Positions 215-26,993 of a DNA stretch of 64,000 nt are shown piece by piece; position 1 is the first letter of the stretch, and each line of letters begins with the position of its first letter. The stretch is taken from the IMG/VR virus record IMGVR_UViG_3300021963_006415, positions 1-64,000 of that record. One strand, written 5' to 3'. The DNA is from a virus. The notes under the pieces were generated by a model that was given only the letters and a program-made list of their open reading frames with translations, searched no databases and was not told where the DNA came from. The position numbers and the translations under genes were made by a program.

Positions 215-220
215 AACTTA

Positions 221-2775: not shown

Positions 2776-3726
2776 TTATTCTGATATTTTTCGTATTTGT
2801 TGTTCTAATCTTATAAGTCTTTCCTTTATCTTATAAATATTACTATTTGTTCTTTTCCAAAAAGACTGATTAGAAACTCCGTTTTCTGATTTTAATTTAC
2901 CATACCACCCCAAAAACTTTTCTATTTCTGCAAGTTGTTTGTTTATATTTGAGATACCTCTATTTACTTTTGTAGTTGCTGGTGCATCTTCTTTTTTTAA
3001 TGCAACCCAACGATTTTCATTCATTACAAAGTTACCATCTTTATCCGATACATAGTAGGCAACCATATTATACGAACCCCCTCTTTGTTTTTCAAGCTTC
3101 TCCACTTCTTTTTTGGCTTCTTTGTATGATGAATAAGAATCTTTAAAAACTCCTTTACCTTGCCCTCTACCTTTGTTATATCCTACATAGTATAAACCTT
3201 CTTTTACTACACTATATCCGGTTAATGCTGCTTGCTTTTTACCTTTTTTATCCTCATCTTCTTTTCTACCAAATGCGTATGGAGTACCATATCCAGCTAC
3301 ATCGCCTGTTGTAGTAGCTTCATCAACTTTCAATTCAGCATCTTTATACATACCACTAACCTTAGCATCTAATTCTGCTGCTAGCTTCTTCTTTTGTGCC
3401 GTTAAAGTTTTTAATTGTTGAATGTGTTGTTTTTCTTCTGGTGTTCCTTTTGATTTTTTGTATAAATCCAAATGCTTCTCCATAGAATCGATTACTTTTG
3501 CATAATCGGTTTGTATAGCTCTAACTGAACGTAATTCTGCTAATACAATTTCTTTGATTTTATCCGGTAAGCCTTTATGAGAAGTTGATGCGAAATCTTT
3601 TGTATCTTTATCAGACATTGAGTCAGCTGCTTTTTCAACTTCTGGAGATGGGTTTTCCATATCACCTTTTTGTGCGGCGTGTACCATACCCATAAATCTT
3701 TGTTGTGCTTTACTTACTGCTGGCAT
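2776..3726 (-). CDS. Multi-module head-associated protein with N-terminal DUF3008-like module
   Basis: MPAVSKAQQRFMG...DFASTSHKGLP resembles DUF3008; further modules follow VLAE, VDE, VVKE, VMNE. Confidence 0.5.
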   Translation of the reverse strand: MPAVSKAQQRFMGMVHAAQKGDMENPSPEVEKAADSMSDKDTKDFASTSHKGLPDKIKEIVLAELRSVRAIQTDYAKVIDSMEKHLDLYKKSKGTPEEKQHIQQLKTLTAQKKKLAAELDAKVSGMYKDAELKVDEATTTGDVAGYGTPYAFGRKEDEDKKGKKQAALTGYSVVKEGLYYVGYNKGRGQGKGVFKDSYSSYKEAKKEVEKLEKQRGGSYNMVAYYVSDKDGNFVMNENRWVALKKEDAPATTKVNRGISNINKQLAEIEKFLGWYGKLKSENGVSNQSFWKRTNSNIYKIKERLIRLEQQIRKISE

Positions 3727-4631: not shown

Positions 4632-6386
4632 TTACTCCTTATCCAAATTCTCTGTCAAAATCGTCTTTTTATTACCATCCATATCCTTAAATACTTCTAA
4701 ATAAGAAGTTTTTCTCGGTTTATATTTGACAGAACCTTCTTTTTGTTTAAGAGTTTTAATTCCCAATGGGTCTCTACCTTCGGGATGGTCATCTTTACCA
4801 TATCTAACCGGGTCTTTTGGTCTACCAACTCCATCTTCTGCTAATTCATTTTTTATCCTCTGAATTTCTTCCTCCACATCGGTTGGAGCATCTGTTCCTG
4901 TTTCTTTTGCTGGGTCAACACCCTGCGTTTCAATAGATGTTAATCTGAACATTTGTTTAGTATCTTCTAATACTGCAACTGTTTGTTCATCTTGTTCATC
5001 TTGTGCCATTCCCATAATAGACTGATACATCCATTCTTTAGAGAACATCTTTGTTTGTTGCATTTGTTGAATCAATGCTACTTTTGATGTGTATAACTCA
5101 ACTTTCTCTTGCTCATATATTTTTGATGGAGTAGTTAGTTCTAATGAAAAATCTGTCAAACTATCATCATCAATTCCTTGCGAATATAAGTGAACGATTG
5201 CGATTTTTGTTAATTCTGAAATAAGTACTCTTTGAATTCTTTCGATTGTTTTTGCAAATCTAATATCTTGCGCTGCTAACGTTGCTTTACCATTAATATC
5301 TTCTTCGTATCCTAAAAACGCTTTAGGAATCTTTAAAGATGACATCAATTTATTTTTAAGGTAATTGATATCATCAATCATATTATATTCTAATCCTTTC
5401 AATGTATCGATAGATGTACCATTATCACTACCACGAACTGGCATATAGTAATCTTCGATAAGGTTCTGCATATTATATTTTAAATTATACTCACCTGTTT
5501 TTTCATCAACAAAAGGAACTTTTTTAGATGCATTGATAATCTTTTGCATATAGTTATCCACTTCGTTTGGTGGGATATTACCAACATCTACTTTGAAAAT
5601 CCTCTTTTCAGGAGCTCTCATTACTCTATGAATTAACATAGCATCTTCCATAAGAGATAGCTGCTTCCAAACCCTTCTACCACCTTCAATCATAGATTTT
5701 CCGTAAGGTAAGAAGTTTGCATCTGAATTTAAACGGAAGTGAGCTACTTCATAGTTTTCGTATTCTTTTTTATTTCCTGCGTTAGCTGGAGAATAACCAC
5801 TATTTGGATTCATAAATGGTGAATATACGAATTTTACTCTTTGAGGATTTTGTATATCAAACCCTTCAACTCTACTTGTTTCATAAACAGACATTGGCTG
5901 TACGTTAACAATACCCAACCCTTCTGCCATTTCTAATTGTAAAAATAAATCACCATACTTTACTAAATTTCTAGTCCAAGGCCATAATGTAAATTCTATA
6001 TTCATAATATCATAAAACAAATTTTCTAAAATTTGCTTTACATTATCATCTGGGTGATGTATTTTTAATATATTACCTTGTTCGTTTTTTGCGGTACATT
6101 CATCAGCGTATATATCTAATGCCGATGATAAAATCGGGTCCATATCCATTGAATCGTAATCTCTAAACAAGTCAATTCTAACTTGTTGATAAGCCATAGC
6201 CGATTCTATTAAACCTCCACTAAATTGTGGGGTTCTCATACGCATGTACCTGTCTACTAAGTTTGTTGTTAAACTTTGATGTTCGTCTGTGTCTATTACC
6301 TTAATACCCTTTTCTGTTTTACGAACTATGGTATTAGTTGAAAATAGTTTTTGTAACCTACCAAAAAATGATTTATCTGATGCCAT
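4632..6386 (-). CDS. Portal protein (T4 gp20-like)
   Basis: YGKSMIE, QLSLMEDAMLIHRVMRAPEKRIFKVDVGN, EDYYMPVRG, LKIPKAFL motifs. Confidence 0.93.
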   Translation of the reverse strand: MASDKSFFGRLQKLFSTNTIVRKTEKGIKVIDTDEHQSLTTNLVDRYMRMRTPQFSGGLIESAMAYQQVRIDLFRDYDSMDMDPILSSALDIYADECTAKNEQGNILKIHHPDDNVKQILENLFYDIMNIEFTLWPWTRNLVKYGDLFLQLEMAEGLGIVNVQPMSVYETSRVEGFDIQNPQRVKFVYSPFMNPNSGYSPANAGNKKEYENYEVAHFRLNSDANFLPYGKSMIEGGRRVWKQLSLMEDAMLIHRVMRAPEKRIFKVDVGNIPPNEVDNYMQKIINASKKVPFVDEKTGEYNLKYNMQNLIEDYYMPVRGSDNGTSIDTLKGLEYNMIDDINYLKNKLMSSLKIPKAFLGYEEDINGKATLAAQDIRFAKTIERIQRVLISELTKIAIVHLYSQGIDDDSLTDFSLELTTPSKIYEQEKVELYTSKVALIQQMQQTKMFSKEWMYQSIMGMAQDEQDEQTVAVLEDTKQMFRLTSIETQGVDPAKETGTDAPTDVEEEIQRIKNELAEDGVGRPKDPVRYGKDDHPEGRDPLGIKTLKQKEGSVKYKPRKTSYLEVFKDMDGNKKTILTENLDKE

Positions 6387-6446: not shown

Positions 6447-7523
6447 TTACCACTTTCTACAAGACCAATATCTTGCCTTCCATCTTGGACCTGGATTATC
6501 ACAATTATGTCTGGCTCTAAAAGATTTTCTTCTTTCAGGATTTGATTTTTTAATTCTCATATTTGGGTCACCAAAGTTTACTTTAACAACGTTACCGCTT
6601 GCATTTTTTACATAAACTTTGAACTTCTTAACATCTCCTTGCATTGGTTTACCCAATTGAACTTTTCTACCCTGATATTCAGCTTCATATACACAATTAC
6701 AATTTGCTTCAGCTAAATATTGTGTATATTCTTTCATAAACTGAACGAACTCTTTCATATCTTGTTCGTTTTCTACATCATATTCCTCTACTTCATCTAT
6801 TTGCTCGTTTACATTTTTTGCATTTACGGGCATTAAACTTTTTAATTTCATATCTTCATTATTTTCTTTTACAGGTACACAATTAGGGACCATTTTACCA
6901 TTTTTCATTTTTCCACCAACTGCTTTATATCCATCCCAACATTCATGTAATGCGTTTAATTCTCCTAAACTTTCATTACAAGTTTTCCAACCACCACCTT
7001 TTGATTTATAGTTTTTTGCAGCCCAACCATTTGCATAAGCTGATGGATAAACATCGAATTTTCTTTTTGCTGCTGCTTTTGATGCTGCCCATTTTCCTGC
7101 ATCAGTTGGACAATTCTTTTCTAAAAAAAGATTTAGTTTTTCTTCTATATTCATAGTTTCATTTTTTTTCTTGCCTTGGCAATGTGCTCTTTGGCTGAAA
7201 CCTTTTGGGTTATTACAATCTATACTCCTTTTATATTTTTCACTCCAATCTTCGTTTTTAGGTTTGGTAGAAACATATATTGGTGTTTTACCTTGTCCTT
7301 TACTATTACTACCACCTCTACCTGCTGCATTTTGTGCAGCTCTTTTTCTACGAGTTGCAGATTCTTTCTCCTTTTTACTCATTCCGGCAGCTTTTGCAGC
7401 CGGTACACATTTTGCATATCCACTCTTTTCTCCGGAAGTTCCACATGGTGGGTGTTTACCATCAACCTTTTTGCCGATGTTTACCCACTTTTCTTTAAAC
7501 CACTTATTTAAATCTTCCTTCAT
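6447..7523 (-). CDS. Multi-module basic/Cys-rich head protein (DUF5872/DUF6321-like modules)
   Basis: Modules KWFKEKWV..PCG..KCVP, IDCNNPKGFSQRAHC, KFDVYPSAYANGW, CWDGY..VPNCVP, and C-terminal RRKSFRARHNC..ARYWSC. Confidence 0.6.
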   Translation of the reverse strand: MKEDLNKWFKEKWVNIGKKVDGKHPPCGTSGEKSGYAKCVPAAKAAGMSKKEKESATRRKRAAQNAAGRGGSNSKGQGKTPIYVSTKPKNEDWSEKYKRSIDCNNPKGFSQRAHCQGKKKNETMNIEEKLNLFLEKNCPTDAGKWAASKAAAKRKFDVYPSAYANGWAAKNYKSKGGGWKTCNESLGELNALHECWDGYKAVGGKMKNGKMVPNCVPVKENNEDMKLKSLMPVNAKNVNEQIDEVEEYDVENEQDMKEFVQFMKEYTQYLAEANCNCVYEAEYQGRKVQLGKPMQGDVKKFKVYVKNASGNVVKVNFGDPNMRIKKSNPERRKSFRARHNCDNPGPRWKARYWSCRKW

Positions 7524-7556: not shown

Positions 7557-9164
7557 TTAACGAAGTAACCAAGTTAGATTTTCTTTCTCTCCTCTACCCA
7601 ACTCCATTTCATATGGATTTTTCTGCTGCCAGTTAGAAGTATATACCCCTGTACTGTTTTGTATTGTGGTTGCATTCAACATATTTCTTGTCAAATCAAT
7701 ACCTTCTTGTCTTAAACGAAGTGCGGTATTTCTAACCCATAATCCAATTCCTAACGCCATTACCAAGTCATCATTATATCCTTTCATTGCTTCCGCTCTA
7801 CCACCATTCCAAATAAATGTAAACAATTCATCTATCAATCTATTAGAACGAATCAAAATATCCTTATCAGTCATATAGGTATCCAATGCTGATATAATCA
7901 AAGGACGGGTTTTAGATGTTGTAGAAAATCCTGCAACCATTCCCCTTTCCTGTCTATAATATTTGTTAGACATTTGTTTTTCAACATCTACATATTGTAA
8001 ATCGTTACTCATATAGAATAGATTCGGATATCCTCTATCTATAATTTGCTGAATACAAGCCCAACCTACGTTTGAGTTCTCCACTACTAACAATGCGTTA
8101 TTATATTCAGTTGCTAATGCGGTTAAAAAGTTTCCAAAATCTTTTGTGTCAATCTTACCTCTATATTCACCAACTTGCGATGAATCTTCTATATCAATGA
8201 TTTGAGCAGTAGAATAGTCACTTCCATCTCCTCTCGCCACGTCGGCGGATATCATATATTGTCTATTGTAATTAGGATGTTCCCATATCCAAAGATTTCC
8301 ATCGAATCCTCTCTTTTCTACGGGCTCCATAACGTATGTATCTTTATACCACGTTAGTAATGCCGGGTCGATTACAGTATCACCCGAACCAATAAAGTCA
8401 CAATCACATTCTTGTGCTGCTCCTTTAACTCCTAAGATACGAGTTTGCTCATCTCTCCACGCTTGGTTTCTTTCAGGGTGTACAGTCCAATGTAAATTGA
8501 TACAATTGAACCCATTTGCACCACTTTCACCTTCTACCCACATTTTATGGAACCAGTTACCCACACCATTAGGAGTAGATAATACGATTGCCGAACCACC
8601 TGTTGATAAGGTAGATTGTGCTGATAACCAAATTTCATCAATATCTCTAATGAATGCCGCCTCATCCACAACTAATAGTGATAGGGCTTCAGAACGTCCG
8701 GCATCTGGAGAAGATGCGATTGCTTTTACTTGTGAGCCGTTCTTTAATTTAAGCGATAGTTTGTTATCTTCAACGGATGAATTACCACCATCTCTTAACC
8801 ATACAGGCAGTAAATCGTGCATAACCCTAACCTTCTCTACTAAGTTTTTTGCAACAGTCACTTTAGTTGCAATAACCAACGCATTGAAGTCTTGGTTGAA
8901 TAACATCTTCCAAAGAATAAAGCCCGCCGATAAAGTTGATAAACCTAATTGGCGGGATTTAAGAATGATGTTAAATCTATTATCTTTAAAATCATCTAAA
9001 CAATTTTCCTGAAATGGGTATAAATGAAAAGGTATTTTTCCTCTCGTTGGGTGCTGAATCACACAATACTTTTTCATAAAGTATATTGGGTCTAAAGCAC
9101 ACTTCTTATACTCATCGGCGATGATTTCTTTTAGAGTCTTTTTAGGTTGCCCTTGAACACTCAT
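7557..9164 (-). CDS. Terminase large subunit (T4 gp17-like)
   Basis: LKSRQLGLST Walker A region, LLVVDEAAF Walker B, STPNG, ADVARGDGSDYS nuclease, NDDLVMA. Confidence 0.95.
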   Translation of the reverse strand: MSVQGQPKKTLKEIIADEYKKCALDPIYFMKKYCVIQHPTRGKIPFHLYPFQENCLDDFKDNRFNIILKSRQLGLSTLSAGFILWKMLFNQDFNALVIATKVTVAKNLVEKVRVMHDLLPVWLRDGGNSSVEDNKLSLKLKNGSQVKAIASSPDAGRSEALSLLVVDEAAFIRDIDEIWLSAQSTLSTGGSAIVLSTPNGVGNWFHKMWVEGESGANGFNCINLHWTVHPERNQAWRDEQTRILGVKGAAQECDCDFIGSGDTVIDPALLTWYKDTYVMEPVEKRGFDGNLWIWEHPNYNRQYMISADVARGDGSDYSTAQIIDIEDSSQVGEYRGKIDTKDFGNFLTALATEYNNALLVVENSNVGWACIQQIIDRGYPNLFYMSNDLQYVDVEKQMSNKYYRQERGMVAGFSTTSKTRPLIISALDTYMTDKDILIRSNRLIDELFTFIWNGGRAEAMKGYNDDLVMALGIGLWVRNTALRLRQEGIDLTRNMLNATTIQNSTGVYTSNWQQKNPYEMELGRGEKENLTWLLR

Positions 9165-9824: not shown

Positions 9825-10493
9825 CTATTTTTTTATAAGCTCTGAATGATTTAATTCACATAACTTATCTTCTAATGCTGCTTTCCTCTCCAATAGAGCT
9901 TCAATTGCTTCGGTAGCACCATCAATATCTTTTTGTAAATCTTCTTTTACTTTATCCATATCAACATCGTAATTCCATTTTTCGATTCTACCATCTTCAT
10001 TTACGAATTCCAATGTTTTAGAAAGTCCGGCTAACGCATCTTCAAATCTCATCTTCAAATCTCTAACATACGCTATTTGATTTCTTGTTATTTTATAATC
10101 TGCATAAAAAGGAAACGTTCCATCTATTTTTAATTTTGTTTCCATTTTTGCCAAACAATTTGAACAATATCCTGTTTTACGGATTAACTTTTTATCAGCG
10201 TGTCCATATTGTATAGTATTACAATCTTCTGCTGAGCAGGTATTTAACTTTTCTAAATATGCTCTAACATCATCTAATTGTGATACTGATATTTTATATC
10301 CCTCCTTTTGTTCCCATTTCTTACCCTCTTTATCAGTCCAAATTTCACCAACGTTTCTTTTGGTTTCTACTTCACCTTCGTAACCATGTACTTTTTGTGT
10401 ATTATCATCTCTACCAAATACCGTATCTATAATCTTTTTACGGGTTGGATGAATGTAATTATTTTTTTCTTCAAAGCTTTTTCTCTTTGCCAT
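9825..10493 (-). CDS. Hypothetical protein with Zn-finger-like Cys pairs and coiled coil
   Basis: CSAEDC...CSNC; C-terminal heptads. Confidence 0.5.
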   Translation of the reverse strand: MAKRKSFEEKNNYIHPTRKKIIDTVFGRDDNTQKVHGYEGEVETKRNVGEIWTDKEGKKWEQKEGYKISVSQLDDVRAYLEKLNTCSAEDCNTIQYGHADKKLIRKTGYCSNCLAKMETKLKIDGTFPFYADYKITRNQIAYVRDLKMRFEDALAGLSKTLEFVNEDGRIEKWNYDVDMDKVKEDLQKDIDGATEAIEALLERKAALEDKLCELNHSELIKK

Positions 10494-10539: not shown

Positions 10540-13500
10540 TTATCTTCCAAACTTAAAAATTCCTAAAATTTGATTCAACGGAGCGAATGTGCCCGTTAAT
10601 TTATAGGTATTTCCTTTGTAAAAGAATACTAATCCTTCGTTTGGAACTAACTTTTCAAATCCACCAATAGCGTTTAATCTAGCCAATTCCTTTTCCAATC
10701 TTTTTATTTGAGCTTCACTACCACCACTTCTGATATCAGATATTGATGATTCTAATGATGTTTTAATTGATTGTAAAGCCGCATCAGGCTGAGCTGTTAG
10801 TACTGAACTCATAAATGAAAGAACTTCTGCGCCAACTCCTAAAAAGATATCTTCAAATTTACGAAGGTTTCCTTTCATAATTTTATCCTTTGCATCCTTA
10901 TCAACACCATCTGCCCACTTTCTGGCATCCTCATCTGCAATTGATTTAATTGTAAATGATTTATTATCAAATGCCCATCTTCTTGCTAATCCTTCTTTTT
11001 CTAATTGTGCTAAATTCTTTTTTGATTTGTTTACAAAATTCATCCACCAAGCATAGTGATATTCAGCTACACCATCTCTATCGGATAATCCGAATTCAGA
11101 TTGTAGTTTGGATAACATACCATTAAACTTACCTTTTTGAGAACTTAACTTTTCATCCTTTGGTAACTTTGTAATTGGAGGTCCTTGAATTGTGTAAGTG
11201 TCTTGTACGTGCTTATTGATTTGTTTAATCATAGATGCTAATTTACTTTCAGCACCTTTTACACTACCTATTGCATTTCCTTTCTCATCGTATTCAACCA
11301 CATTATGGAATATTAATAGATTTTGTCCATATGGGATTACGTTTGCGTTTTGTGGATAGATTACTTCTAAATTACAAAATGCTGAACCATCTTTGAATAT
11401 GCTTTGTCTTTCTTTTTCGCTCAATCCGCTAATTGCTGAATATAAATCTCTCATTGCGAAATTATATGCATCACTCAATGCACCTCTACCGCCAAATTTA
11501 GATGCCAACGCATTCATATCTAAAGCGCTTGCTCCACCATTTGCCAAATGTCCTTTATTACGAGCTGCAATTAACTTACCATTTTTCCAACTGATTGCTA
11601 ATGCCTGTCCATCGGTTTTCTCTCTTACTACTCCCAATTTACCATCTAACGCATTATTAACAATTTTTTTTAAATCACCAAATGTAAGATTCATTGAAAT
11701 ATCAAATGGATGATTCATATGCCCATATGCACCACCTTCACTAATCATTTGTTTAGATTCGTAAATGTGTCCATTTCTTTTACCAAAATCTCTTAATAAA
11801 ATTCCAGCAGCTGCATTAGCTTCGTTTTCAACATCAGAACCGGTTGAACCATCTTCATATCCACCAATAGTTCCAACTTGTCTTTGTTTAAGGTGTACTA
11901 ATTCGTGTGCTAATGTTCTAAGAATATCTGGTAAACTTCTATTACTTACATAAACAAATATTTCATCGGTCTTAGGGTCATATCCTCCATAAGATTTGAA
12001 TGAAGTAGCAAATTCATTATCTTTTACTAATCGTATTCCAAATGGAAATTGGTCTAAAGATAACCTATCTTTTGCAAATTTAATAAACTCACCTATAGTC
12101 TGAGCTTTACTTTTTTTTTGCTCTGGAGCTGGAACTTCTTCTTTTAATAACCCCAACTTAACAGACATATCAGTTATTTCTTCATAATCTGTATCTCTTA
12201 AACTTCTTTCTACTTCTCTTCTATTTGCATTTGGGTCTGCACAAACGGCTGCTCCTATTTTTTTTCTACCAAATGAACCAGCTCTATCCCACATTTTCAT
12301 AATAGCTTTGTAATGCCAATCGCCATGTCCTACTTCATTAAATGCAGATGGTGTTTTTATTCTTACCCAACCACCCCAACGAAACACTTTAGCGGGTATT
12401 GGTAATGTAGAGCCTAATGGTAATTTATGCTGATACTTTTTATCAATTCCAATTACTTTTGTAACAAAATCCCTAGTCTTATTATCAGCACCTATTAATT
12501 CAACTTCTACTTCAACAGGCTGTCCACCTATTTTAATTTTACCTTTAAAAAATCCTTTATTGATTTCATTTATAGTTCTAAATGTAGTTGCTTGCTTACC
12601 ATTAATTGTTGGCATTCCGTGGTCATCAGTTCCAATATCTTTAACTTGTATTTTTTTGTTTTTGAACTTGCCCATTAAAACAATATCACCTTTATCAACA
12701 TCTACATTTACATCTTCTTTAACTAAATCTCCAAAATCTTTACCTTGCTTATATGATTTAATAGATTGTAATAATTGTTCATCTGACATTTCAAATGTTT
12801 CCATTTTCTCTGCCATTTTGTTAACTACGTTCTGAATATATTTTTCAGAATTGAATTCTTCGTTTTCATTAACTAATGAACGTAGTTCTAATAATCCCAT
12901 CGTTACTCCTGCCAACCCTGCTCCACCAACTGCGGCTTGAGTACCACCCAATCCCATCGATTCTAATGCAACGTGTTTGATTGCATCTTTACCTAAGTGT
13001 GCGGCAAATCCACCGGCACCGTGAGTAAATGCCCCAATAGCACCATGTCCTACCGCAGATGCTGCTCCGCCTAATCCTGCTCCGCCTGCTATTGCTTTTG
13101 CTCCGGCAGCTAAACCACTTCCTAATGCAACACTAGCAACTAAAAGACCTAAATCTTTATAAAAATGCTTCATATGATGGACTTGCTCTTTTCTTTTTTC
13201 ATCAGAATATTCCCATTCACCAGTTTCTTTATTTTTAGTAGAACCAATCTTTTGCCCACTTGCTAATGCTTTATGCGCATCATATGCACCTTTTAGCATT
13301 TCGCCTTTATGTTGTAAAACGTGTCCAATTGCTTTAACAACTTTAGTATCTGCTACTTTCTTTATACCATCTTTTAAAGAGTTCATAAACTTAGAACCCT
13401 TTTTATGCTCACCATTATTGATAAACTCCTGCTCTTCTTTACCTAAAGATTTAATTTCATTATCTAATGCAGATTTCAGTTCTTCAGCTTTTTTTTCTTT

Positions 13501-14568
13501 TGCTACTCTATCTTCTGCATTTGATTTTAATTCAGCACCACTTAATTTTTGTTCTGGTGGTGGAGCTTGTTTTTCTCCACTCTTTTCAGAACCATCTTTT
13601 GGTTTAGCATCTACTTTACCTTGAGCAGTATCACCTTTTTTAACAGGCTGACCTGGTTGAGGCGGTGTTTCTGCTTTTTTCTTCGGTTCGTTTGCTGGCG
13701 CATCATCCGGGCCAACTAACTTTTTAGCCTGAATATGTGCTTCGTGGTCTTTTGGTAATCTTAATGCGTTTCTTACACTAATTTTTTTCTTTTTACCATC
13801 TGCTGCAGTATATGTAAGCTCCTTATCCATATTTGGATTAGGCTCTTCTTCTAAAAAGTATTCTTCAATAAAATTATCTGCTTCAAATACTAATTTTGCA
13901 ATTTGTTCTGCAATAGGGTCATATACATATGAATCATCCGTAGTTGCTACTGAACGAATATCATCATTTTTCTTTTGTATCTTCTTAACATCCTCTTTGG
14001 ATGGATAACCTTTTATGAATTCTTCTTTTACTAATTTTTTAGTTATCATTTTATAAATTTCTTTATCAAATTTTGGGTATGCTTTCAAAAATAATTTTTC
14101 AGCATTATCCGAACTTAACCAATTTCTTACATCAGTTCCACTAATTGCTTCTGGTTCAGGTGGTATAATATAAGTATAACCAATCTCATCGTAACCATAT
14201 CCAGCCTTACCTTTGTATGGTTTAAAATATTTACCTGCTAATCTATCCGCATCTTTTTGTCCAACAGCTGCAATATATTGAGTAGTTTTACCATCGAATT
14301 TAGAAAGTATTTCTTTTGGAGCGTATGGGTTTGATACTTGTACAATTTTGTTTGGTGGAATACCAAACATTTTACCCATTATAACAACTTTCTCTTTGAA
14401 ATTAAACGGAGATTTACCACTATCGGTTTTATCGGATGTGCCAATATAAACGTTATTAGCACCAAATTTTGACACTAATTTTTGATAGGCAGCGTAATGT
14501 CCTTTGTGAAAAGGTTGAAAACGGCCCGAATATACAACTATGGTTTTTTTGACTACTGGTTTATCCAC
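10540..14568 (-). CDS. 1342-aa multidomain protein: HxGH nucleotidyltransferase, Gly-rich membrane segment, zincin metallopeptidase, ligase-like (KxDG) domain
   Basis: SGRFQPFHKGH; Gly/Ala hydrophobic stretch; LAHELVH...ENEANA; EKTDG...EGLVF...YKLTG. Confidence 0.7.
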   Translation of the reverse strand: MDKPVVKKTIVVYSGRFQPFHKGHYAAYQKLVSKFGANNVYIGTSDKTDSGKSPFNFKEKVVIMGKMFGIPPNKIVQVSNPYAPKEILSKFDGKTTQYIAAVGQKDADRLAGKYFKPYKGKAGYGYDEIGYTYIIPPEPEAISGTDVRNWLSSDNAEKLFLKAYPKFDKEIYKMITKKLVKEEFIKGYPSKEDVKKIQKKNDDIRSVATTDDSYVYDPIAEQIAKLVFEADNFIEEYFLEEEPNPNMDKELTYTAADGKKKKISVRNALRLPKDHEAHIQAKKLVGPDDAPANEPKKKAETPPQPGQPVKKGDTAQGKVDAKPKDGSEKSGEKQAPPPEQKLSGAELKSNAEDRVAKEKKAEELKSALDNEIKSLGKEEQEFINNGEHKKGSKFMNSLKDGIKKVADTKVVKAIGHVLQHKGEMLKGAYDAHKALASGQKIGSTKNKETGEWEYSDEKRKEQVHHMKHFYKDLGLLVASVALGSGLAAGAKAIAGGAGLGGAASAVGHGAIGAFTHGAGGFAAHLGKDAIKHVALESMGLGGTQAAVGGAGLAGVTMGLLELRSLVNENEEFNSEKYIQNVVNKMAEKMETFEMSDEQLLQSIKSYKQGKDFGDLVKEDVNVDVDKGDIVLMGKFKNKKIQVKDIGTDDHGMPTINGKQATTFRTINEINKGFFKGKIKIGGQPVEVEVELIGADNKTRDFVTKVIGIDKKYQHKLPLGSTLPIPAKVFRWGGWVRIKTPSAFNEVGHGDWHYKAIMKMWDRAGSFGRKKIGAAVCADPNANRREVERSLRDTDYEEITDMSVKLGLLKEEVPAPEQKKSKAQTIGEFIKFAKDRLSLDQFPFGIRLVKDNEFATSFKSYGGYDPKTDEIFVYVSNRSLPDILRTLAHELVHLKQRQVGTIGGYEDGSTGSDVENEANAAAGILLRDFGKRNGHIYESKQMISEGGAYGHMNHPFDISMNLTFGDLKKIVNNALDGKLGVVREKTDGQALAISWKNGKLIAARNKGHLANGGASALDMNALASKFGGRGALSDAYNFAMRDLYSAISGLSEKERQSIFKDGSAFCNLEVIYPQNANVIPYGQNLLIFHNVVEYDEKGNAIGSVKGAESKLASMIKQINKHVQDTYTIQGPPITKLPKDEKLSSQKGKFNGMLSKLQSEFGLSDRDGVAEYHYAWWMNFVNKSKKNLAQLEKEGLARRWAFDNKSFTIKSIADEDARKWADGVDKDAKDKIMKGNLRKFEDIFLGVGAEVLSFMSSVLTAQPDAALQSIKTSLESSISDIRSGGSEAQIKRLEKELARLNAIGGFEKLVPNEGLVFFYKGNTYKLTGTFAPLNQILGIFKFGR

Positions 14569-14595: not shown

Positions 14596-14609
14596 CTTTT
14601 TATAAAAGA

Positions 14610-14735
14610 TTAGAAACTTTTATAAACAAAAGGGTCTCTTTTTTTAAGTTCTTCTAATTTTTTTTTAAATCTTTTTTTACGTTTGTGCTCTTCCCAAAGT
14701 TTTACAAAGAAAGAAATTACTGGCCAATTTTTCAT
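14610..14735 (-). CDS. Small basic protein (41 aa), absent from the ORF track
   Basis: Manual translation MKNWPVISFFVKLWEEHKRKKRFKKKLEELKKRDPFVYKSF*; fills the gap in the operon. Confidence 0.6.
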   Translation of the reverse strand: MKNWPVISFFVKLWEEHKRKKRFKKKLEELKKRDPFVYKSF

Positions 14736-14741: not shown

Positions 14742-15284
14742 TTAATTTTTGTAATACAATTCAGGGTATTCTACTAAGCAATGAACTCCGCCTGTTTTAT
14801 AAGCCCTTTCATATATTGGTTCTATATCATTCCAATTTGTTAAATTGTGAAATTCTATATTTTTACATAAAGATTTAAATTCATCAAAATAGTTTCCTTT
14901 ATGTTGGTGGCCAGGGTCTAATGGTTTATCAGAGCCTTTACCTAATCTTATTAATATATTTGCTTTTTTTCCAGTCATTAATTCATATTTGTCTATATGA
15001 TTAATTAACTGATTTGCTGCGCATATTATAAAATCCCAACGTGGATAGAATGTAACAACAGTTTTTCCGGTCATTGCTATTCCTAAACTCATACCCATTT
15101 GAGTTTCTTCCATTACAGGCAATTCTACCATCTTTTCTTTTGGTACATTACCCAATGTAGTACTCATAGGATTTCCGGCATAGACTATTTGTTGTCCTAT
15201 AAATATAACATCATCTTTTTCTCCTAAAATTTTCATAGCAGATGTCAATGCATCTTTATATGGAGTATATTCTGGTTGACTCAT
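14742..15284 (-). CDS. TPP-dependent enzyme beta subunit (E1-beta/transketolase pyrimidine-binding domain), short form
   Basis: VIFIGQ, ELPVMEETQMGMSLGIAMTG, ICAANQLIN, GHQH. Confidence 0.8.
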   Translation of the reverse strand: MSQPEYTPYKDALTSAMKILGEKDDVIFIGQQIVYAGNPMSTTLGNVPKEKMVELPVMEETQMGMSLGIAMTGKTVVTFYPRWDFIICAANQLINHIDKYELMTGKKANILIRLGKGSDKPLDPGHQHKGNYFDEFKSLCKNIEFHNLTNWNDIEPIYERAYKTGGVHCLVEYPELYYKN

Positions 15285-16288
15285 TATGGTTGTGAATTTG
15301 GGTTAAATAAATGTTTGTTTGCTTTATACCAATTTAGTGCATCTTCTAATCCACTTTTTAAATCGTATTTTGGTTTCCATCCCAATTTACGAAGTTTTTC
15401 ATTAGATAATAATCTAACAGGAATCATAGGTGCTTTATTACTTACATAATCGATTGGATTATTATTATTTTCAATTTCTTTAATAGTATTTAAAACCTCA
15501 TTAACACTATATCCCGTACCATAACATACATTGTAAATATCATATGTATCTACATTTTCAGCAACACATATGAATCCACTAACCATATCATCGACGTGGA
15601 TAATATCTCTAATCTCACTTCCATCACCCCAAACAGGTATTGGATTCAACCCATCTGCTACTTTACGAATGTTTGCAGGAGTAACGTGGCATTTTTCGTA
15701 ATCGTATTTATCGTTCGGTCCAAATGCGTTTGAAGGTCTGATGATTACACACTGCATTGGATTGTGAATGTGATTTGATAAGAAATCACAAAGAGTTTCA
15801 CCATATCTTTTCATATTACCAACTGCTTTGTAAACAGGGTATATATTTGGTGTTTGACAATTTTCTTCTTCATAACAATAGTTCTTTCCCAAATCTGGAT
15901 ATACTGTATTTGATGAAATATACATAAATTTACGGACTTTATTTTTCCAAGCTTGCTCCATTAAATTTACATTCATTTCTACGTTTTGTGTAACATGCAA
16001 TAGTGGATTTACTTTTGTATCCAATGCGTTTGTAGTGTTTGCTGCACAATGAAATATAACATCTATATTCGTTGTTACTATTTTACAAAATTCGGCATCT
16101 GTCAAATCACCTTTATAGTGTTCACATTGATTTAAATCGTTTGGTATATCGTTTGTTAAATTTCTTTTATAAGTAACTGCTCTAACGTTTGTATATCCCA
16201 AATCTAAAAGCATTTTTAATAATCGTGAACCTATAAATCCACTAGCTCCTGTGACTAATATTTTATCTGTTTTTTTCATAAAATTCAT
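15284..16288 (-). CDS. NAD(P)-dependent sugar epimerase/reductase (GDP-fucose synthase-like extended SDR)
   Basis: TGASGFIG, RPSNAFGP, HVTPA, VWGDGSEIRDIIHVDD. Confidence 0.85.
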   Translation of the reverse strand: MNFMKKTDKILVTGASGFIGSRLLKMLLDLGYTNVRAVTYKRNLTNDIPNDLNQCEHYKGDLTDAEFCKIVTTNIDVIFHCAANTTNALDTKVNPLLHVTQNVEMNVNLMEQAWKNKVRKFMYISSNTVYPDLGKNYCYEEENCQTPNIYPVYKAVGNMKRYGETLCDFLSNHIHNPMQCVIIRPSNAFGPNDKYDYEKCHVTPANIRKVADGLNPIPVWGDGSEIRDIIHVDDMVSGFICVAENVDTYDIYNVCYGTGYSVNEVLNTIKEIENNNNPIDYVSNKAPMIPVRLLSNEKLRKLGWKPKYDLKSGLEDALNWYKANKHLFNPNSQP

Positions 16289-17195
16289 ATGTTTTTTTAA
16301 TTCCTTCTTTTATACCCATTTTAGGTAGAATATTATAATAAATTTGATTTGTGATATCCATTTGCCTTCTTATATCACCATTTGGTTTAGTAGTATCCCA
16401 ATTTATTGAAATAGATTTTCCACTTATTTTTATTATAGTTTCTACAATTTCTTTAATAGTAATTTCTTCACCACACCCAAAATTTATGGTTATATGTTGT
16501 TTTTGTTCGTATAACTGAATAATTGCATCAGCTACATCTCCTGCGTAAACAAAATCTCTAATCGGAGAACCATCCCCCCACGCTTCAATTGAATCTATTG
16601 CCTCATATACTTTTTTAATGGTAGATGCTATAACAGTTCCCTTACCACTAAAATCATCATATTCTCCAAATATATTTGCGGGTCTGATTATTGCCCATTT
16701 TTCATATCCTTTTTGAACTTTATATGATTCTAACAATAATTCACCCATTCTTTTACTCCAAGCTGGAAACCAATCTGCTTCAGATGGTAAAGTTTTCCAA
16801 ACACTATCTTCTACAAATTTTTCAGCCGGTGCATATACTCCAACTGAACTTACAAATATTAACCAAATATTATTCTTTGCACATTGATTTATTATTTCTG
16901 TATTTATTTTAAACGATGGATATAAAAAATCTACTGGCTGTGTTTTTGCTCTCATTGGAGAACCTTTTACACCAAAAGCATTTAATACTACATCAGGAGA
17001 TTCATAAAAAAACAAATTTTTAATATTTTCTTCCAATGTTAAATCCAATTCATAAAATGTAAACTTATCGGATATGGGTAATTCTGATGAATATCTAATA
17101 TCTGCTCCAATTACATCGTATCCTTTTTCTAAGCATTTTTTTACTAGATGTATTCCAACTAAACCACTACAACCTGTTATTAATATCTTTTCCAT
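16263..17195 (-). CDS. NAD(P)-dependent sugar epimerase/reductase (extended SDR)
   Basis: TGCSGLVG, RPANIFG, WGDGSPIRDFVY; likely start ATG 17195. Confidence 0.85.
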   Translation of the reverse strand: MEKILITGCSGLVGIHLVKKCLEKGYDVIGADIRYSSELPISDKFTFYELDLTLEENIKNLFFYESPDVVLNAFGVKGSPMRAKTQPVDFLYPSFKINTEIINQCAKNNIWLIFVSSVGVYAPAEKFVEDSVWKTLPSEADWFPAWSKRMGELLLESYKVQKGYEKWAIIRPANIFGEYDDFSGKGTVIASTIKKVYEAIDSIEAWGDGSPIRDFVYAGDVADAIIQLYEQKQHITINFGCGEEITIKEIVETIIKISGKSISINWDTTKPNGDIRRQMDITNQIYYNILPKMGIKEGIKKTYEFYEKNR

Positions 17196-17197
17196 AA

Positions 17198-17827
17198 TTA
17201 AAACGCTACCCATTTTCCACTACCATAGTGTGGGAATTTTGATTTGTATTTGTAATATATTACATCGGATGGAATTTCTCTTTTTTTATTCCAAGTTGCT
17301 TCGGTTGGAGTATAAGTTGAAATATCGTTATCTTCCACAACAAAGTGTAAGGGTAAGTCAAAGTTTCTGGCATATTTGTGAACTTCATAAAATATACCAC
17401 TTTCAAAACTCATATCTCCAACAAAAACCCAAACTTTTTCATCACTACCACTTTTTTTAATAGATAAAGCAGTTCCTAATGCTATTGATAGAGTTGCTCC
17501 AACTATTGCCGATGCATAAAACTTTTCATCAATATTACATAATGTAATGGATTTTCCTTTTAAAATTTCTTCTTCAATCCAAACAGGACAAATTCCTTTT
17601 AATAATATATGATAATGTGAACGCCAGGTACTAAATACCCAATCGTTTGTTTTTATTCTTTTAAATATTTCAATTAAAGCTTGCTCATTTCCATTGGAAA
17701 GGTGTACGGGCCCTTTAATCTTACCCGCTTCCCAATGATTTACAATAAGTTTTTCAAAATCAATAAGAGATTCGGTTGTATGCTCAACTTCTCTTACTAT
17801 TGGATATTGTTCTAAATTTTTAATCAT
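17198..17827 (-). CDS. TPP-dependent enzyme alpha subunit (E1-alpha-like), short form
   Basis: GPVHLSNGNE, STWRSHYH, TPP motif GDMSFESG...VVEDN; likely start 17827 (ATGA overlap). Confidence 0.85.
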   Translation of the reverse strand: MIKNLEQYPIVREVEHTTESLIDFEKLIVNHWEAGKIKGPVHLSNGNEQALIEIFKRIKTNDWVFSTWRSHYHILLKGICPVWIEEEILKGKSITLCNIDEKFYASAIVGATLSIALGTALSIKKSGSDEKVWVFVGDMSFESGIFYEVHKYARNFDLPLHFVVEDNDISTYTPTEATWNKKREIPSDVIYYKYKSKFPHYGSGKWVAF

Positions 17828-18369
17828 CTGTCTCTTTTTTGTAATATTGGCGAATCTGTTGGCCATTCAATTTGAAATTCTGGGTCATTCCACTTAACTA
17901 CACATTGCGCATTTTCTTCTACAAAATCTCCTTCATAAAAAAGATTATAGTGAAATACACAATCTGTTAATGCAAAGTGTCCGTTGGCAAATCCCGGTGG
18001 TACTAAAATTTGGTCTCTATTTTTTTCTGAAATTAAGTACGAATTCCAATCACCATAAGTTGGTGATTCTTTTCTCATATCTAATACAACTAAAAATATA
18101 TCTCCTACAAGTGCTTGTACCAATTTCCAAGTTTTATTATCCCAATGTAATCCTCTTAATACACCTTTGTATGATTTTGAGAATCTACCATGAACTTTCA
18201 AATCACCACTCATAAAATTATGAACGGGATGTTCTTCAGAATGATATGTTGTCCATATTTCTCCTCTATATTCTCTATAAACAGATGGTGAAAATATTGG
18301 TACATCTTTACCAAATGGTTTCAAAAAAGAAACCTCAACATCATTCCATTTTTTGTCTTTGTAACTCAT
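17824..18369 (-). CDS. dTDP-4-dehydrorhamnose 3,5-epimerase family (RmlC-like)
   Basis: SKSYKGVLRGLH, KLVQ..G.IF.VVLDMRKESPTYG, VPPGFANGH, WNDP; likely start 18369. Confidence 0.88.
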   Translation of the reverse strand: MSYKDKKWNDVEVSFLKPFGKDVPIFSPSVYREYRGEIWTTYHSEEHPVHNFMSGDLKVHGRFSKSYKGVLRGLHWDNKTWKLVQALVGDIFLVVLDMRKESPTYGDWNSYLISEKNRDQILVPPGFANGHFALTDCVFHYNLFYEGDFVEENAQCVVKWNDPEFQIEWPTDSPILQKRDR

Positions 18370-18370
18370 A

Positions 18371-19336
18371 TTATGTTCTATTTGCGTAACCCAAAGGAAA
18401 TCCATTTCTGAACTCTGCTCCCATTTTAGGAACAATCATTTGATAACCTTGAATTAATTGTTTAATACCTCTATCTAAATCCCATTGTGGTAACCACCCA
18501 GTCGCTTCTATTTTAGCGTTTGATACGATATAATCTCTTTTATCGGGGTCCTCATAAAAATCGTTATATGATACCGCAAAATCCTTTACATGAGATTGTA
18601 TCTTTTCTAATAGTTCCTGCTTTGAAAGGTTTGCAGAACTTAATCCTACATTAAATACTTCACCTTTATATTCATCATAGTGATTTATCATAAAAAGAAA
18701 TGCAGATGCCACATCTTCGATATGAATAAAGTTTCTTTTAAATGTTTTCTCAAATACTACAATGTATTTATCGGTTATTGCTTTATAAACAAAATCGTTT
18801 ACTAACAAATCGGTTCTCATTCTGGGTGAAACTCCAAATACAGTTGCTAATCTAAATGTAATTGCTGATGTATTTGCCCTTAGAAAATTTTCAGCATCAC
18901 ATTTAGTTTGTCCGTAAACTGAAATAGGTGTGAGTGGTGATTCTTCTGTACATTCGGTTTGCCCAACGCCAATACCATATCCACTATTTGTATTTGGATA
19001 TAAAATCTTTTTATCTTTTGCAAATTTTACAATATTAAAAATTTGGTCAAAGTTAATTTCCTTTGCCAATTTAGGGTCTGCTGCGCAAGCAGGAAATCCA
19101 ACTATTGCCGCTAATGGTATAATCACATCAGCTTCTTTACATAATTCTTCTAATAGTGATTCGTTACGAACATCTCCATATACAAATTTAAATTTGGGAT
19201 ATGATGTATATTGCAAAAGAGAAGTTTGATTGAATAATAGTTTATCTAATACTGTAACTTCATATCCTACGTGTAGAAATCGTTCAACCATAACTGAACC
19301 TAAATAACCGGCACCGCCTGTAATTAATATTTTCAT
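18371..19336 (-). CDS. NAD-dependent epimerase/dehydratase
   Basis: TGGAGYLG, LAAIVG, YGQTK catalytic motif, RLATVFG. Confidence 0.88.
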   Translation of the reverse strand: MKILITGGAGYLGSVMVERFLHVGYEVTVLDKLLFNQTSLLQYTSYPKFKFVYGDVRNESLLEELCKEADVIIPLAAIVGFPACAADPKLAKEINFDQIFNIVKFAKDKKILYPNTNSGYGIGVGQTECTEESPLTPISVYGQTKCDAENFLRANTSAITFRLATVFGVSPRMRTDLLVNDFVYKAITDKYIVVFEKTFKRNFIHIEDVASAFLFMINHYDEYKGEVFNVGLSSANLSKQELLEKIQSHVKDFAVSYNDFYEDPDKRDYIVSNAKIEATGWLPQWDLDRGIKQLIQGYQMIVPKMGAEFRNGFPLGYANRT

Positions 19337-19692
19337 ATGTTCTTTAATTCACGTTTTGCTCTTTCTAAATCCATAGCTTTATCGTCTATAAGTAAATCAT
19401 AATGTAGTTTACCCATAAATAATCCATGATGCTTTATACCCCACTCTTTTAAATGATTTAATGTTAAGTCATACAATTTTTCATATATAACTTTAACATC
19501 TCCATCATATGTTTTCATACCTCTAGCTGTATAGATATATATTGTATTTCCTTTTTCATATAAAGAATTTGATATATCAATCATTTCTTGAATGGGTTTA
19601 CAATAGTGATATTTGTCTCCACCCATATGCTCTACATCCTTAGGTCTATAACATAACGTATCATCTAAATCAAAAGCGAATATTTTTTTCAT
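19333..19692 (-). CDS. HAD-family phosphatase (capsule biosynthesis phosphatase-like)
   Basis: FDLDDTL, YTARG, MGK...IDDKA. Confidence 0.85.
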   Translation of the reverse strand: MKKIFAFDLDDTLCYRPKDVEHMGGDKYHYCKPIQEMIDISNSLYEKGNTIYIYTARGMKTYDGDVKVIYEKLYDLTLNHLKEWGIKHHGLFMGKLHYDLLIDDKAMDLERAKRELKNI

Positions 19693-20636
19693 TATGGTAA
19701 GTGGTTTAATTTATTTTTAATATTTTCTTTTACTATGTGGTCTATTTTCGGTAAATCATATAATCCAAAACAATAATGCCCACATACTGCAATCAATTTC
19801 TTTTTATCCGAAAAATCAAAGTCGGTTGGCACCCATCTTTCCCATTTTTTAGAATCTAAACAAATTTTGTAAAATTCATTTATTTGAGTATCTGACATAT
19901 ATTCTAAATATGTCAATGTTTCTATTTGTACTATCTCTGGGCCTATATTTAAAGAAGTTAATCCATTTTTAAATCTAATGTTTATTTCATCTTTAGTTAA
20001 ATAATCTCCATTATGTTCTTTTGTGTCTTTATTAAAGGATTTAAATAGAAGTGATTGCTTTTTTAATTTTTCTAAATTAAATACACCAGTATTTTTCATA
20101 TTTACTAAATCCAATCCAACACCAGATTGAACTACCATATAAACAATACTATCAAATTCTTCTTTCGTCAAATTGTCTAACAAATATCGCATAATATCAA
20201 TCAGTTCTTCATCACTAAATTTTCTTATAGCTTCTTCCGTTAATACTTCAAACTTAACATTTGGATTTAAATAATGTATATACTTTATAGAACGAATTGT
20301 TTCGTTTATACCATCTAAATGATTAGAGAATCGCTTCCAAGGGTCTAAATGTATTATATCGAAATAGTTTGCATCATGCGTATATGTAACATATCCAAAA
20401 TCAGAAATTACTCCTTGATTTGGACCTGAATGGTCTCTTTGTAAAATAATATTCTTATCTTTACTTCTGATATATTCGTAGAATTCTTTGGTATTCCAAT
20501 TATTTACATAACCGCCATCCCAATCTATTTGCCTACGAGTCGGTAATAATCCAAACTTATTATTATTGTTCAATTCTAAAACAGAATCAACTATGTTTTT
20601 AGACATTGGGCATATATAATATCTAGGCAGTTGCAT
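19692..20636 (-). CDS. GatZ/KbaZ-like TIM-barrel sugar-phosphate epimerase/aldolase
   Basis: QIDWDGGY, RDHSGP, IHLDP, EHNGDYL, NIGPE parallel the GatZ/KbaZ motifs. Confidence 0.65.
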   Translation of the reverse strand: MQLPRYYICPMSKNIVDSVLELNNNNKFGLLPTRRQIDWDGGYVNNWNTKEFYEYIRSKDKNIILQRDHSGPNQGVISDFGYVTYTHDANYFDIIHLDPWKRFSNHLDGINETIRSIKYIHYLNPNVKFEVLTEEAIRKFSDEELIDIMRYLLDNLTKEEFDSIVYMVVQSGVGLDLVNMKNTGVFNLEKLKKQSLLFKSFNKDTKEHNGDYLTKDEINIRFKNGLTSLNIGPEIVQIETLTYLEYMSDTQINEFYKICLDSKKWERWVPTDFDFSDKKKLIAVCGHYCFGLYDLPKIDHIVKENIKNKLNHLP

Positions 20637-26992: not shown

Positions 26993-26993
26993 A

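Follow-up and report, generated by a model that had tools for sequence, protein, structure and literature searches.

A 1342-residue polyprotein and its C-terminal domain

Here, we describe a gene in the IMG/VR virus record IMGVR_UViG_3300021963_006415 that encodes a chain of about ten modules, ending in a domain with the motifs of covalent nucleotidyltransferases. The stretch of DNA analysed (the window) comprises positions 1 to 64,000 of this 92.6-kb record, whose completeness is estimated at 49%; its G+C content is ~30% and nearly all of its genes lie on the minus strand. The gene is a single open reading frame (ORF) of 1342 amino acids (aa) at 10540..14568, with a GTG start and its stop codon at 10540-10542, and its full-length relatives are 1331-1353 aa long and 69-96% identical to it (scored over the region 575-935). 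On balance, we consider it probable from the sequences and predicted structures that the C-terminal domain represents a new family of the ligase superfamily, carried in a protease-delimited and probably head-packaged enzyme polyprotein for RNA repair. A previous sequence-only reading had dealt with the span 10540-11740, which corresponds to this domain (residues 945-1342, 10543..11736) and the stop codon, and had suggested an RNA-ligase-like domain paired with an HxGH nucleotidyltransferase in a possible injected repair module. The computational checks given here are favourable, none being strong alone, and we regard that interpretation as supported. The parts of the chain are as follows.

10540..14568, minus strand: whole gene, modular polyprotein of 1342 aa (ORF listing)
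14023..14568, minus strand: module 1, residues 1-182, HIGH nucleotidyltransferase ending in LVKE (phrog_395, E 1.7e-14; Foldseek)
14497..14508, minus strand: HKGH (HxGH), residues 21-24 (motif script)
14125..14145, minus strand: ISGTDVR, residues 142-148, the second HIGH-family motif (motif script)
13156..14022, minus strand: residues 183-471, a short helical piece at the position of the relatives' DUF5661, then a linker of low complexity rich in K/E/A/D/P (composition, alignment)
12886..13155, minus strand: residues 472-561, hydrophobic segment rich in Gly/Ala, ending in GLLE and then SLVNE (hydropathy, composition)
12139..12885, minus strand: residues 562-810, four small modules without known family (joints LVKE 616-618, INE 666-668, FNE 743-745 and LKE 808-810)
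11737..12138, minus strand: residues 811-944, small module resembling HExxH zinc peptidases (phrog_87 metallo-protease, E 9.6e-4; DUF3920, E 0.13)
10543..11736, minus strand: residues 945-1342, domain resembling ligase-type covalent nucleotidyltransferases (motifs, conservation, predicted fold)

Within the C-terminal domain the following elements were located.

11701..11736, minus strand: conserved N-terminal element GGAYGHMNHPFD (sequence)
11608..11619, minus strand: motif I, KTDG (in REKTDGQ), residues 984-987, with K984 at 11617..11619 (motif script)
11551..11568, minus strand: motif Ia, AARNKG, residues 1001-1006 (motif script)
11359..11373, minus strand: motif III, NLEVI, residues 1066-1070 (motif script)
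11305..11319, minus strand: motif IIIa, LLIFH (sequence/alignment)
~10666..11172, minus strand: helical insertion of ~170 residues, domain residues ~207-375 (model)
10624..10638, minus strand: motif IV, EGLVF, residues 1311-1315 (motif script)
10591..10605, minus strand: motif V, YKLTG, residues 1322-1326 (motif script)

Motifs I, Ia (the R of AARNKG), III (NLEVI), IV and V, to which the sequence-only reading had drawn attention, were all found by script in the order in which they occur in ligases, and they are near-invariant in an alignment of the C-terminal 430 aa of the query with those of 146 relatives (n = 147). By itself, the four-letter KxDG pattern is no more than is expected by chance. 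In the alignment, K984 is retained in 139 sequences and D986 and G987 in 141 each, while the x position varies (T in 89, L in 44, V in 6). The later positions R1003 (AARN), E1068 (NLEVI), F1087-H1088, E1311-G1312 and K1323 are kept in 137-146 of the 147, with individual counts of 143 for R1003, 144 for E1068, 144 for H1088 (LLIFH), 145 and 146 for E1311 and G1312 (EGLVF), and 144 for K1323 (YKLTG). A GGAYGHMxHPFD element specific to the family lies upstream of motif I.

In three relatives (P0011, P0234 and P0252) an intein sits exactly between the K and the TDG of KTDG (EK, C...HN, TDGQ). The match to PF14890 is above the cut-off in P0234 (E 1.1e-10) and 0.3 bit below it in P0252 (E 1.1e-8). 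Inteins typically sit in catalytic motifs. Those found here are mini-inteins.

The AlphaFold model of the domain, made from a 30-row alignment, has a mean predicted local distance difference test score (pLDDT) of 79.3 and a predicted template-modelling score (pTM) of 0.71, with the motifs located on strands and following one another in canonical order. The strands holding R1003, E1068, F1087-H1088, E1311-G1312 and K1323 are model residues 63-75, 137-144, 157-167, 387-391 and 394-398, respectively, and the all-helical block of ~170 residues separates motif IIIa from motif IV. A structural search against 48,161 chains returned ligases as 7 among the 50 matches listed, aligned over model residues 55-208, and the alignments to T4 Rnl1 and T7 ligase extend from motif I to motifs IV/V (model residues 24..408 and 25..399). 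K984 (domain residue 58) is paired structurally with residue 35 of Rnl2, 148 of Trl1, 170 of NgrRnl, 99 of T4 Rnl1, 92 of the Palaeococcus ligase, 151 of the African swine fever virus (ASFV) ligase and 97 of 5d1o. The PDB titles, which name the mutants K170M (NgrRnl), K99M (T4 Rnl1) and K92A (Palaeococcus), confirm three of these as nucleophiles; K35 of Rnl2, K148 of Trl1, K151 of the ASFV ligase and K97 of 5d1o are presumably the nucleophiles of their enzymes. Below the family's own members, which bear the name "cytidyltransferase-like domain-containing protein", the BFVD matches are largely annotated as RNA ligase. One further BFVD row, the 591-aa "cytidyltransferase-like domain-containing protein" A0A0M6VVW4 of Synechococcus phage S-PM2, is a weak match (E 3.4e-3, 11% identity). 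Taken together, the motifs and the predicted fold indicate that the domain very probably belongs to the superfamily of enzymes that form lysine-nucleotidyl intermediates (ligases and capping enzymes).

Fused partners, joints and the head-gene neighbourhood

The family is large. With the last 416 aa as query, 1,969 proteins were found among 7,998 candidates scored, and an exhaustive search gave 1,829 cluster representatives (50% identity) at E <= 1e-3 and 596 at E <= 1e-30. The domain is encoded on at least 583 viral-contig stretches and is abundant in lake and marine metagenomes. It is almost missing from cultured phages, being present in 3 of 50,697 deposited phage records (Mel-JY01, LR756508 and LR756500), and standard annotation therefore overlooks it. 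The cultured carrier, Microcystis phage Mel-JY01, encodes the homologue WWT39297; no mention of this phage was found in the literature searched. Family proteins range from 277 to 1,930 aa, with the domain at the extreme C-terminus.

What might such a domain act upon? The proteins to which it is fused offer the best indication. A Pfam scan covering 38 of the 150 listed representatives found the HIGH nucleotidyltransferase PF01467 in 26 (above its cut-off), DUF5661 in 12, a PolyA_pol/CCA-adding head in 3, HD in 3, a Ros/MucR zinc finger in 2 and an AAA_33 kinase in 1, with 8 lacking any family; GNAT and cupin domains are further partners. The longest protein (P0165, 1,930 aa) combines the nucleotidyltransferase, DUF5661, a P-loop kinase with weak matches to PSTK (E 2.6e-7) and to the Pnkp kinase (E 0.005), HD, a CCA-adding enzyme and the ligase-like domain, while another (P0153) has two CCA-adding enzymes and HD. 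By their family matches, these partners are predicted end-healing and tRNA 3'-end repair activities. They are the main reason why we prefer RNA over DNA as the substrate, and the fusions to CCA-adding enzymes, HD and a kinase resembling polynucleotide kinase (PNK) or PSTK bear out, at the level of sequence, the repair role that had been suggested. In one relative (P0262) the order is permuted, with the ligase-like domain ahead of the nucleotidyltransferase. That the two remain side by side even there suggests that their functions are linked. No description of an architecture joining a ligase-like domain to such a nucleotidyltransferase was found in the literature searched (RNA ligase, tRNA repair, prohead protease, polyprotein).

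The (H/T)xGH motif of the sequence-only reading is HKGH of module 1, located on the same polypeptide 2.8 kb outside the span 10540-11740; ISGTDVR had gone unmentioned. Roughly 760 residues of other modules separate the two enzymes. Both the HxGH and the ISxTxxR motif are invariant or nearly so in the nucleotidyltransferase alignment (A2), and residues 1-186 are modelled with a pLDDT of 91 as a Rossmann-like fold. The nicotinamide mononucleotide (NMN) adenylyltransferase (NMNAT) fold that had been anticipated is borne out by the model: among 114 Foldseek matches to the PDB at E <= 1e-3, those ranked highest are almost all NadD/NadM/NMNAT (E 7e-7 to 1e-4, TM-score 0.55-0.65), with two PPAT rows within the top 40. 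Sequence models are less decisive. PF01467 reaches E 0.0012 here (19.5 bits against a cut-off of 21), and the NCBIfam NMNAT models reach E 5e-7 with a match confined to the HxGH region and scores far below their equivalog cut-offs (29.4 bits against 127 for NF002243; 27.7 against 181 for TIGR01527). Among named phage proteins, NMNAT/Nudix enzymes of the NadM type come closest, with 23% identity across 93% of the domain. We conclude from the modelled fold and the motifs that the module is like the adenylyltransferases of NMN and nicotinic acid mononucleotide (NaMN). A sugar-nucleotide cytidylyltransferase belonging to the adjoining glycan cluster was considered and rejected, given the NMNAT fold and motifs and the fact that the gene stays by the large terminase gene in relatives.

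The joints between modules were compared with the sites of a known prohead protease. A published review (PMC9026906) gives L/I-x-E as the sequence after which the T4 prohead protease gp21 cleaves, and describes 10-residue leaders, sufficient for capsid targeting in the case of T4 IPIII, that serve to load internal proteins. In the window protein, ISE directly precedes the ligase-like domain, and among the 132 representatives with the GGxxGH motif, 103 have [LI]-x-E at this place, with 14 different residues at P2. For all stored relatives with the motif (n = 359, a redundant set), E occupies P1 in 331 and L/I occupies P3 in 354. This stretch is modelled with a pLDDT below 50, yet is nearly invariant. 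Furthermore, comparison of 26 full-length relatives revealed that entire cassettes, 41-462 residues long, have been inserted precisely at three places: behind LV(N/K)E (616), at 664, and behind IYE (937). At 616 and 937, most of the inserted cassettes stop immediately ahead of another N/K-E, thereby completing an [LIV]-[NK]-E joint. The insertions and deletions in residues 183-471 are not bounded by L/I-x-E.

Leaders of the same kind are present on the stand-alone forms of both enzymes. Stand-alone ligase-like proteins have leaders of 10-40 residues ending in L/I-x-E, 90 of 97 stand-alone nucleotidyltransferases have such a leader, and MIRLKNILNE is found identically on both enzymes. In one relative (P0137) a complete leader, including its Met (MIRLKELLNEVLLTE), is retained as an internal linker, a trace of gene fusion.

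The polyprotein gene is followed on its strand by two small ORFs, the genes for the large terminase (TerL) and a T4-type portal, several small ORFs and the gene for an S77 protease.

7557..9164, minus strand: TerL (library match), with a 358-aa ORF between portal and TerL
4632..6386, minus strand: portal, Portal_T4 (PF07230, E 8.7e-73)
1291..1881, minus strand: prohead core serine protease of T4 type (PF03420 Peptidase_S77, E 6.6e-30, above cut-off; phrog_207, E 3.6e-53)
592..1020, minus strand: 142-aa ORF immediately following the protease gene (N-terminus MLKLKDLLNE)

The leader of the 142-aa ORF, MLKLKDLLNE, is of the same type as those of the relatives' stand-alone ligase-like proteins and nucleotidyltransferases, and the protease itself carries LIE at residues 6-8 of its N-terminus. 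The order polyprotein, 222-aa ORF, TerL, portal and protease is retained across the 80 best related loci. In all 60 related loci that extend at least 4 kb downstream, TerL is encoded 0.75-2.0 kb past the C-terminal domain, and both TerL and portal are present in all 26 with at least 8 kb. Thus the suggestion that the module is injected finds a basis in the position of the gene within the head module and in joints that match the motif of the T4 prohead protease. From these sequence features, we judge it rather probable that the polyprotein is packaged and processed.

The remaining modules are less well defined. In the Gly/Ala-rich segment, residues 481-561 include 23 G and 21 A, and hydropathy windows exceed 1.0 at 468-496 and 542-548; judging by this composition, the segment is possibly membrane-active. 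Pfam and PHROGs give no family match for residues 562-810. In the following module, HELVH (11893..11907) has ENEAN downstream, and the module ends in IYE ... MISE (ISE at 11737..11745), directly before the ligase-like domain. It gave no significant match against PDB sequences, and its motifs make it weakly zinc-peptidase-like.

As for the phage itself, TerL is most similar to its counterparts in Flavobacterium phage immuto (53%) and Microcystis phage Mel-JY01 (52%), then to that of an uncultured phage of 484 kb (46%), followed by those of T4-like cyanophages at about 31-34%. The phage, which we take to infect aquatic bacteria, is therefore a distant T4-like myovirus. The product of the 222-aa ORF (9825..10493) is rich in Cys along one stretch and has an acidic, coiled C-terminal part. 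In 80 of 80 loci this ORF follows the polyprotein gene at a distance of 38-91 bases; it has no match in the family libraries and may encode the small terminase or a different head-assembly factor. Small ORFs near the portal and protease genes (592..1020, 2298..2774, 2776..3726 and 6447..7523) are candidate prohead-core or internal proteins. Two of them have L-x-E leaders (MLKLKDLLNE and MKLTQLKE), and two carry the short domains DUF3008 and DUF5872. A Lys-rich ORF of 41 codons (14609..14734, minus strand) occupies part of the 170-base gap immediately upstream of the polyprotein start.

Further upstream, a block extends from 14.7 to about 41 kb, with sugar-nucleotide enzyme genes in its first part (14.7-23 kb). 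The part scanned (14742..23155) encodes three ORFs like NAD-dependent epimerases/dehydratases, one like dTDP-4-dehydrorhamnose epimerase, a transketolase-like protein in two halves, a heptose-isomerase/HAD-like ORF and a cysteine-dioxygenase-like fusion, and some 20 back-to-back minus-strand ORFs continue the block from 25414 to 41349. It looks like a large auxiliary island for glycan synthesis. Beyond it lie two giant ORFs, one of 2177 aa (42067..48600) with a C-terminal Peptidase_S74 intramolecular chaperone domain, as in tail fibres and spikes, and one of 1725 aa (56827..62004) with no match in the family libraries. An ORF of 1047 aa (48859..52002) fuses a calcineurin-like phosphoesterase to an SMC/AAA_23 ATPase and resembles a single-chain version of SbcD and SbcC (or gp47 and gp46); a T7-type endonuclease I is encoded near it (52986..53396; PF05367, E 1.4e-59). 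In the rest of the record, positions 64001-82000 encode a baseplate gp25-like protein, a carbamoyltransferase, a peptide deformylase, a UvdE UV-endonuclease, Hsp20 and an FkbM methyltransferase, and positions 82001-92631 two 2OG-Fe(II) oxygenases.

Contrary evidence and alternative explanations

Several results weigh against the reading proposed here, and each is given with the alternative on which it bears. As to packaging, the window protein has no N-terminal leader: it starts with VDKP, where relatives continue after MNxxNE, and no in-frame start exists upstream. The pattern [LIVMF]xE is not enriched in it (22 occurrences against 23.6 +/- 4.1 in shuffles), and a narrower pattern chosen post hoc, [LIVF][NKS]E, occurs 9 times against 5.1, a count reached by 130 of 2000 shuffles. 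In 29 of the 132 representatives [LI]-x-E is missing directly before the domain, P1 being Cys in 13 and Met in 12. Finally, the 80 loci used for synteny all belong to one clade at >=61% identity.

The missing leader and the absent enrichment favour an alternative in which the same enzymes would remain unpackaged, the polyprotein working in the cytoplasm of the infected cell, late or during the whole infection, either whole or cut by its own HExxH peptidase, with L/I-x-E being a linker convention or the target of that peptidase. The proximity to head genes may then merely reflect synteny throughout the clade, and a zincin-like module is present inside the chain, such peptidases having been proposed as processing hubs of polyvalent proteins (PMC5512222). 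We nevertheless think this explanation unlikely. L/I at P3, E at P1 and a free P2 are exactly the gp21 rule, the stand-alone forms of both enzymes bear cleavable-looking leaders like that of the ORF beside the protease gene, and many relatives retain the joints without having the HExxH module (no MPT match in 39 of 80 related loci).

As to the ligase assignment, Pfam, NCBIfam and PHROGs give no accepted family for the C-terminal domain. The models PF09511, PF09414 and DNA_ligase_A_M are unlisted at E <= 10 for the 30 members of the family alignment (A1), at E <= 1 for the whole protein and at E <= 0.01 for 26 divergent members; as positive controls, PF09511 and PF09414 recover T4 rnlA and rnlB. 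Profile-profile alignment (hhalign) of the family with T4 Rnl1 and Rnl2 is not significant (E 0.089 and 0.3, respectively), nor is it with a deeper 147-row profile (E 0.11 and 0.034), the columns aligned at these scores being those of motif I and, for Rnl1, also motif III. When the A1 profile was searched against PDB sequences, the sole row was ribosomal eS6 (E 0.0077) over the helical insertion, which we take to be spurious. In the Foldseek search against the PDB, 7 of the top 10 rows are RNA ligases, with no match at E <= 0.001, that is, in the grey zone. The insertion of ~170 residues is without precedent and no known RNA-binding domain is present, motif V has a single conserved Lys instead of two, and the part of the domain with motif I is missing from P0231 and P0240, 2 of the 150 listed representatives. 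With regard to the proposed RNA repair, the 92.6-kb record (~49% of the genome) contains no tRNA genes, and among 34 further ORFs scanned there is no Pnkp, RtcB, Tpt1 or Nampt, and likewise no kinase or phosphatase, half of the genome being missing.

Two other candidates from these searches were set aside. PgdA_N rows, found for 14 of the 30 A1 members (best E 6.6e-4), are taken as chance. PF19782 (DUF6267), which is annotated on 24% of one ESM Atlas cluster, was dropped, as its model finds nothing in the genome or in the 26 divergent members; no mention of DUF6267 was found in the literature searched. The ESM Atlas clusters nearest to the domain are viral hypothetical proteins.

Less likely still than an unpackaged polyprotein is that the domain forms a lysine-nucleotidyl intermediate without sealing RNA, and instead nucleotidylates protein, caps or adenylylates RNA or DNA 5' ends, or seals DNA (for example, nicks in the entering genome). 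Motif I also occurs in DNA ligases and capping enzymes, the inserted helices have no assigned role, and the lone Lys of motif V would fit such an enzyme as well. A chain that ends soon after motif V, without an oligonucleotide/oligosaccharide-binding (OB) domain, is characteristic of RNA ligases, unlike DNA ligases and capping enzymes. In the window protein the chain ends 16 residues past motif V, with a single helix (model residues 402-413) and no OB-fold domain there, and in 124 of the 125 representatives matching the motif IV-V pattern it ends after 10-19 residues; identity as a DNA ligase or capping enzyme is rejected because there is no OB domain. In addition, the fusion partners of relatives are enzymes of tRNA and RNA ends (CCA-adding, HD and a PNK-like kinase), and the top structural rows are RNA ligases.

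A different link between the two enzymes, which stay together in hundreds of differing architectures, is conceivable, in which the NMNAT-like module would make nicotinamide adenine dinucleotide (NAD+) for the ligase-like module, which would use NAD+ in place of ATP, the NMN being recycled, so that capsid-delivered tRNA resealing could proceed with ATP, NAD+ and translation shut down. We hold this to be very doubtful; if true, it would be the first NAD+-dependent RNA ligase.

That the domain lies outside the superfamily altogether, as a conserved structural or capsid-anchoring domain carrying variable N-terminal cargo, its likeness in motifs being convergent, we regard as highly improbable: it is nearly always C-terminal, beneath highly variable N-terminal parts, half of it is a helical bundle and neither sequence nor Foldseek searches link it significantly to ligases, but the residues catalytic in ligases are near-invariant while the x of KxDG is free, K984 falls at the nucleophile position in seven ligase entries, inteins lie inside KTDG, and stand-alone forms free of cargo are common (14 of the 125 motif-pattern representatives are <=480 aa).

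A proposed mechanism and its relation to known systems

Under the reading that we favour, a new ligase-like family within a packaged repair polyprotein, the chain would be synthesised late and incorporated in the prohead core, where its L/I-x-E joints would be cut by the phage S77 prohead protease, or possibly by the internal HExxH peptidase. The freed enzymes would then be carried in the capsid and ejected into the cell alongside the DNA. There, Lys984 of KTDG would attack ATP to give Lys-AMP, with the nucleotide held by motifs III, IIIa, IV and V; the AMP would be moved to the 5'-phosphate end of the RNA, and attack by the 3'-OH would close the break. The helical insert of ~170 residues may substitute for the C-terminal substrate-binding domains of other RNA ligases, while the NMNAT-like module probably makes NAD+ or a related dinucleotide, in support of NAD+. 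The target is most plausibly tRNA cut by host anticodon nucleases, which would be mended before phage genes are translated. Delivery of the enzymes as protein would thereby avoid the deadlock of translating a repair gene with broken tRNA. If true, this would give a reason for capsid-borne repair: a phage in a host that cuts its tRNA cannot translate a repair gene, but can import repair.

Compared with the known RNA ligases (T4 Rnl1, Trl1-LIG, T4 Rnl2/REL1, archaeal Rnl3 and Naegleria Rnl5), the domain has KxDG with the same succession of strand-borne motifs Ia, III, IIIa, IV and V after it, a lysine that superposes in the model on K99, K148, K35, K92 and K170 of Rnl1, Trl1, Rnl2, Rnl3 and Rnl5, and no OB domain. 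It resembles them, too, in its phage origin and in the fusion of its relatives to predicted end-healing and CCA-repair enzymes, and its motif III stretch is similar to that of T4 Rnl1 in the hhalign alignment, the score of which is not significant. The accessory domains that define RNA-ligase clades are a C-terminal domain after motif V and, in Rnl5, an N-terminal domain. The domain described here has neither the C-terminal domains of Rnl1, Rnl2 and Rnl3 nor the N-terminal domain of Rnl5, and has instead the internal insertion of helices between motifs IIIa and IV, for which reason membership of any named clade is not supported. The GGAYGHMxHPFD element before motif I and the one Lys of motif V also set it apart. 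If the assignment is true, a large unannotated clade with a new domain topology joins the RNA-ligase superfamily.

The N-terminal module is like NadM, NadD and archaeal NMNAT in its GRFQPFHKGH and ISGTDVR motifs and its Rossmann-like fold. It is unlike the phage NadM-Nudix enzymes in that its partner, fused or encoded alongside, is the ligase-like domain and not a Nudix or kinase domain.

In T4, the pairing of Pnkp and Rnl1 counters the PrrC anticodon nuclease, and a published account (PMC2610378) presents phage tRNA repair as a response to PrrC. The purpose proposed here would be the same, to heal and seal tRNA cut by the host, and the relatives carry kinase, phosphoesterase-type HD and CCA-adding modules. 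Pnkp and Rnl1 are encoded by separate early genes and made after infection, whereas the enzymes here would arrive pre-made; also unlike the T4 pair, the window copy has no kinase or phosphatase module.

The polyvalent proteins (Iyer, Burroughs, Anand, de Souza and Aravind 2017; PMC5512222) are similar, so far as the available portion of that paper describes them, in combining unrelated enzyme domains with a zincin-like module (here a weak match) beside virion genes, and their delivery with the DNA has been predicted. In the same portion, their 2H phosphoesterase domains are described as never seen with RNA ligases and no HIGH nucleotidyltransferase is listed. Compared with the polyvalent proteins as described there, the present chain has joints that follow the rule of the prohead protease, and its hub is the C-terminal ligase-like domain and not MuF, ArdC or a peptidase.

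A parallel for the proposed delivery is offered by Alt and IPI-IPIII, the head cargo of T4, with which the present system shares an S77 protease and portal in the genome, L/I-x-E at joints and leader ends, and a gene in the head module. It differs from them in having about ten modules in one chain, as opposed to one protein per gene, and in a window copy that has no leader. Its predicted cargo consists of RNA and NAD enzymes in place of an ADP-ribosyltransferase or a nuclease inhibitor. If true, the leader-targeted and protease-trimmed cargo of T4 would be extended from single small proteins to swappable multi-enzyme chains, the leaders and joints of which suggest a natural toolkit for putting foreign enzymes into capsids.

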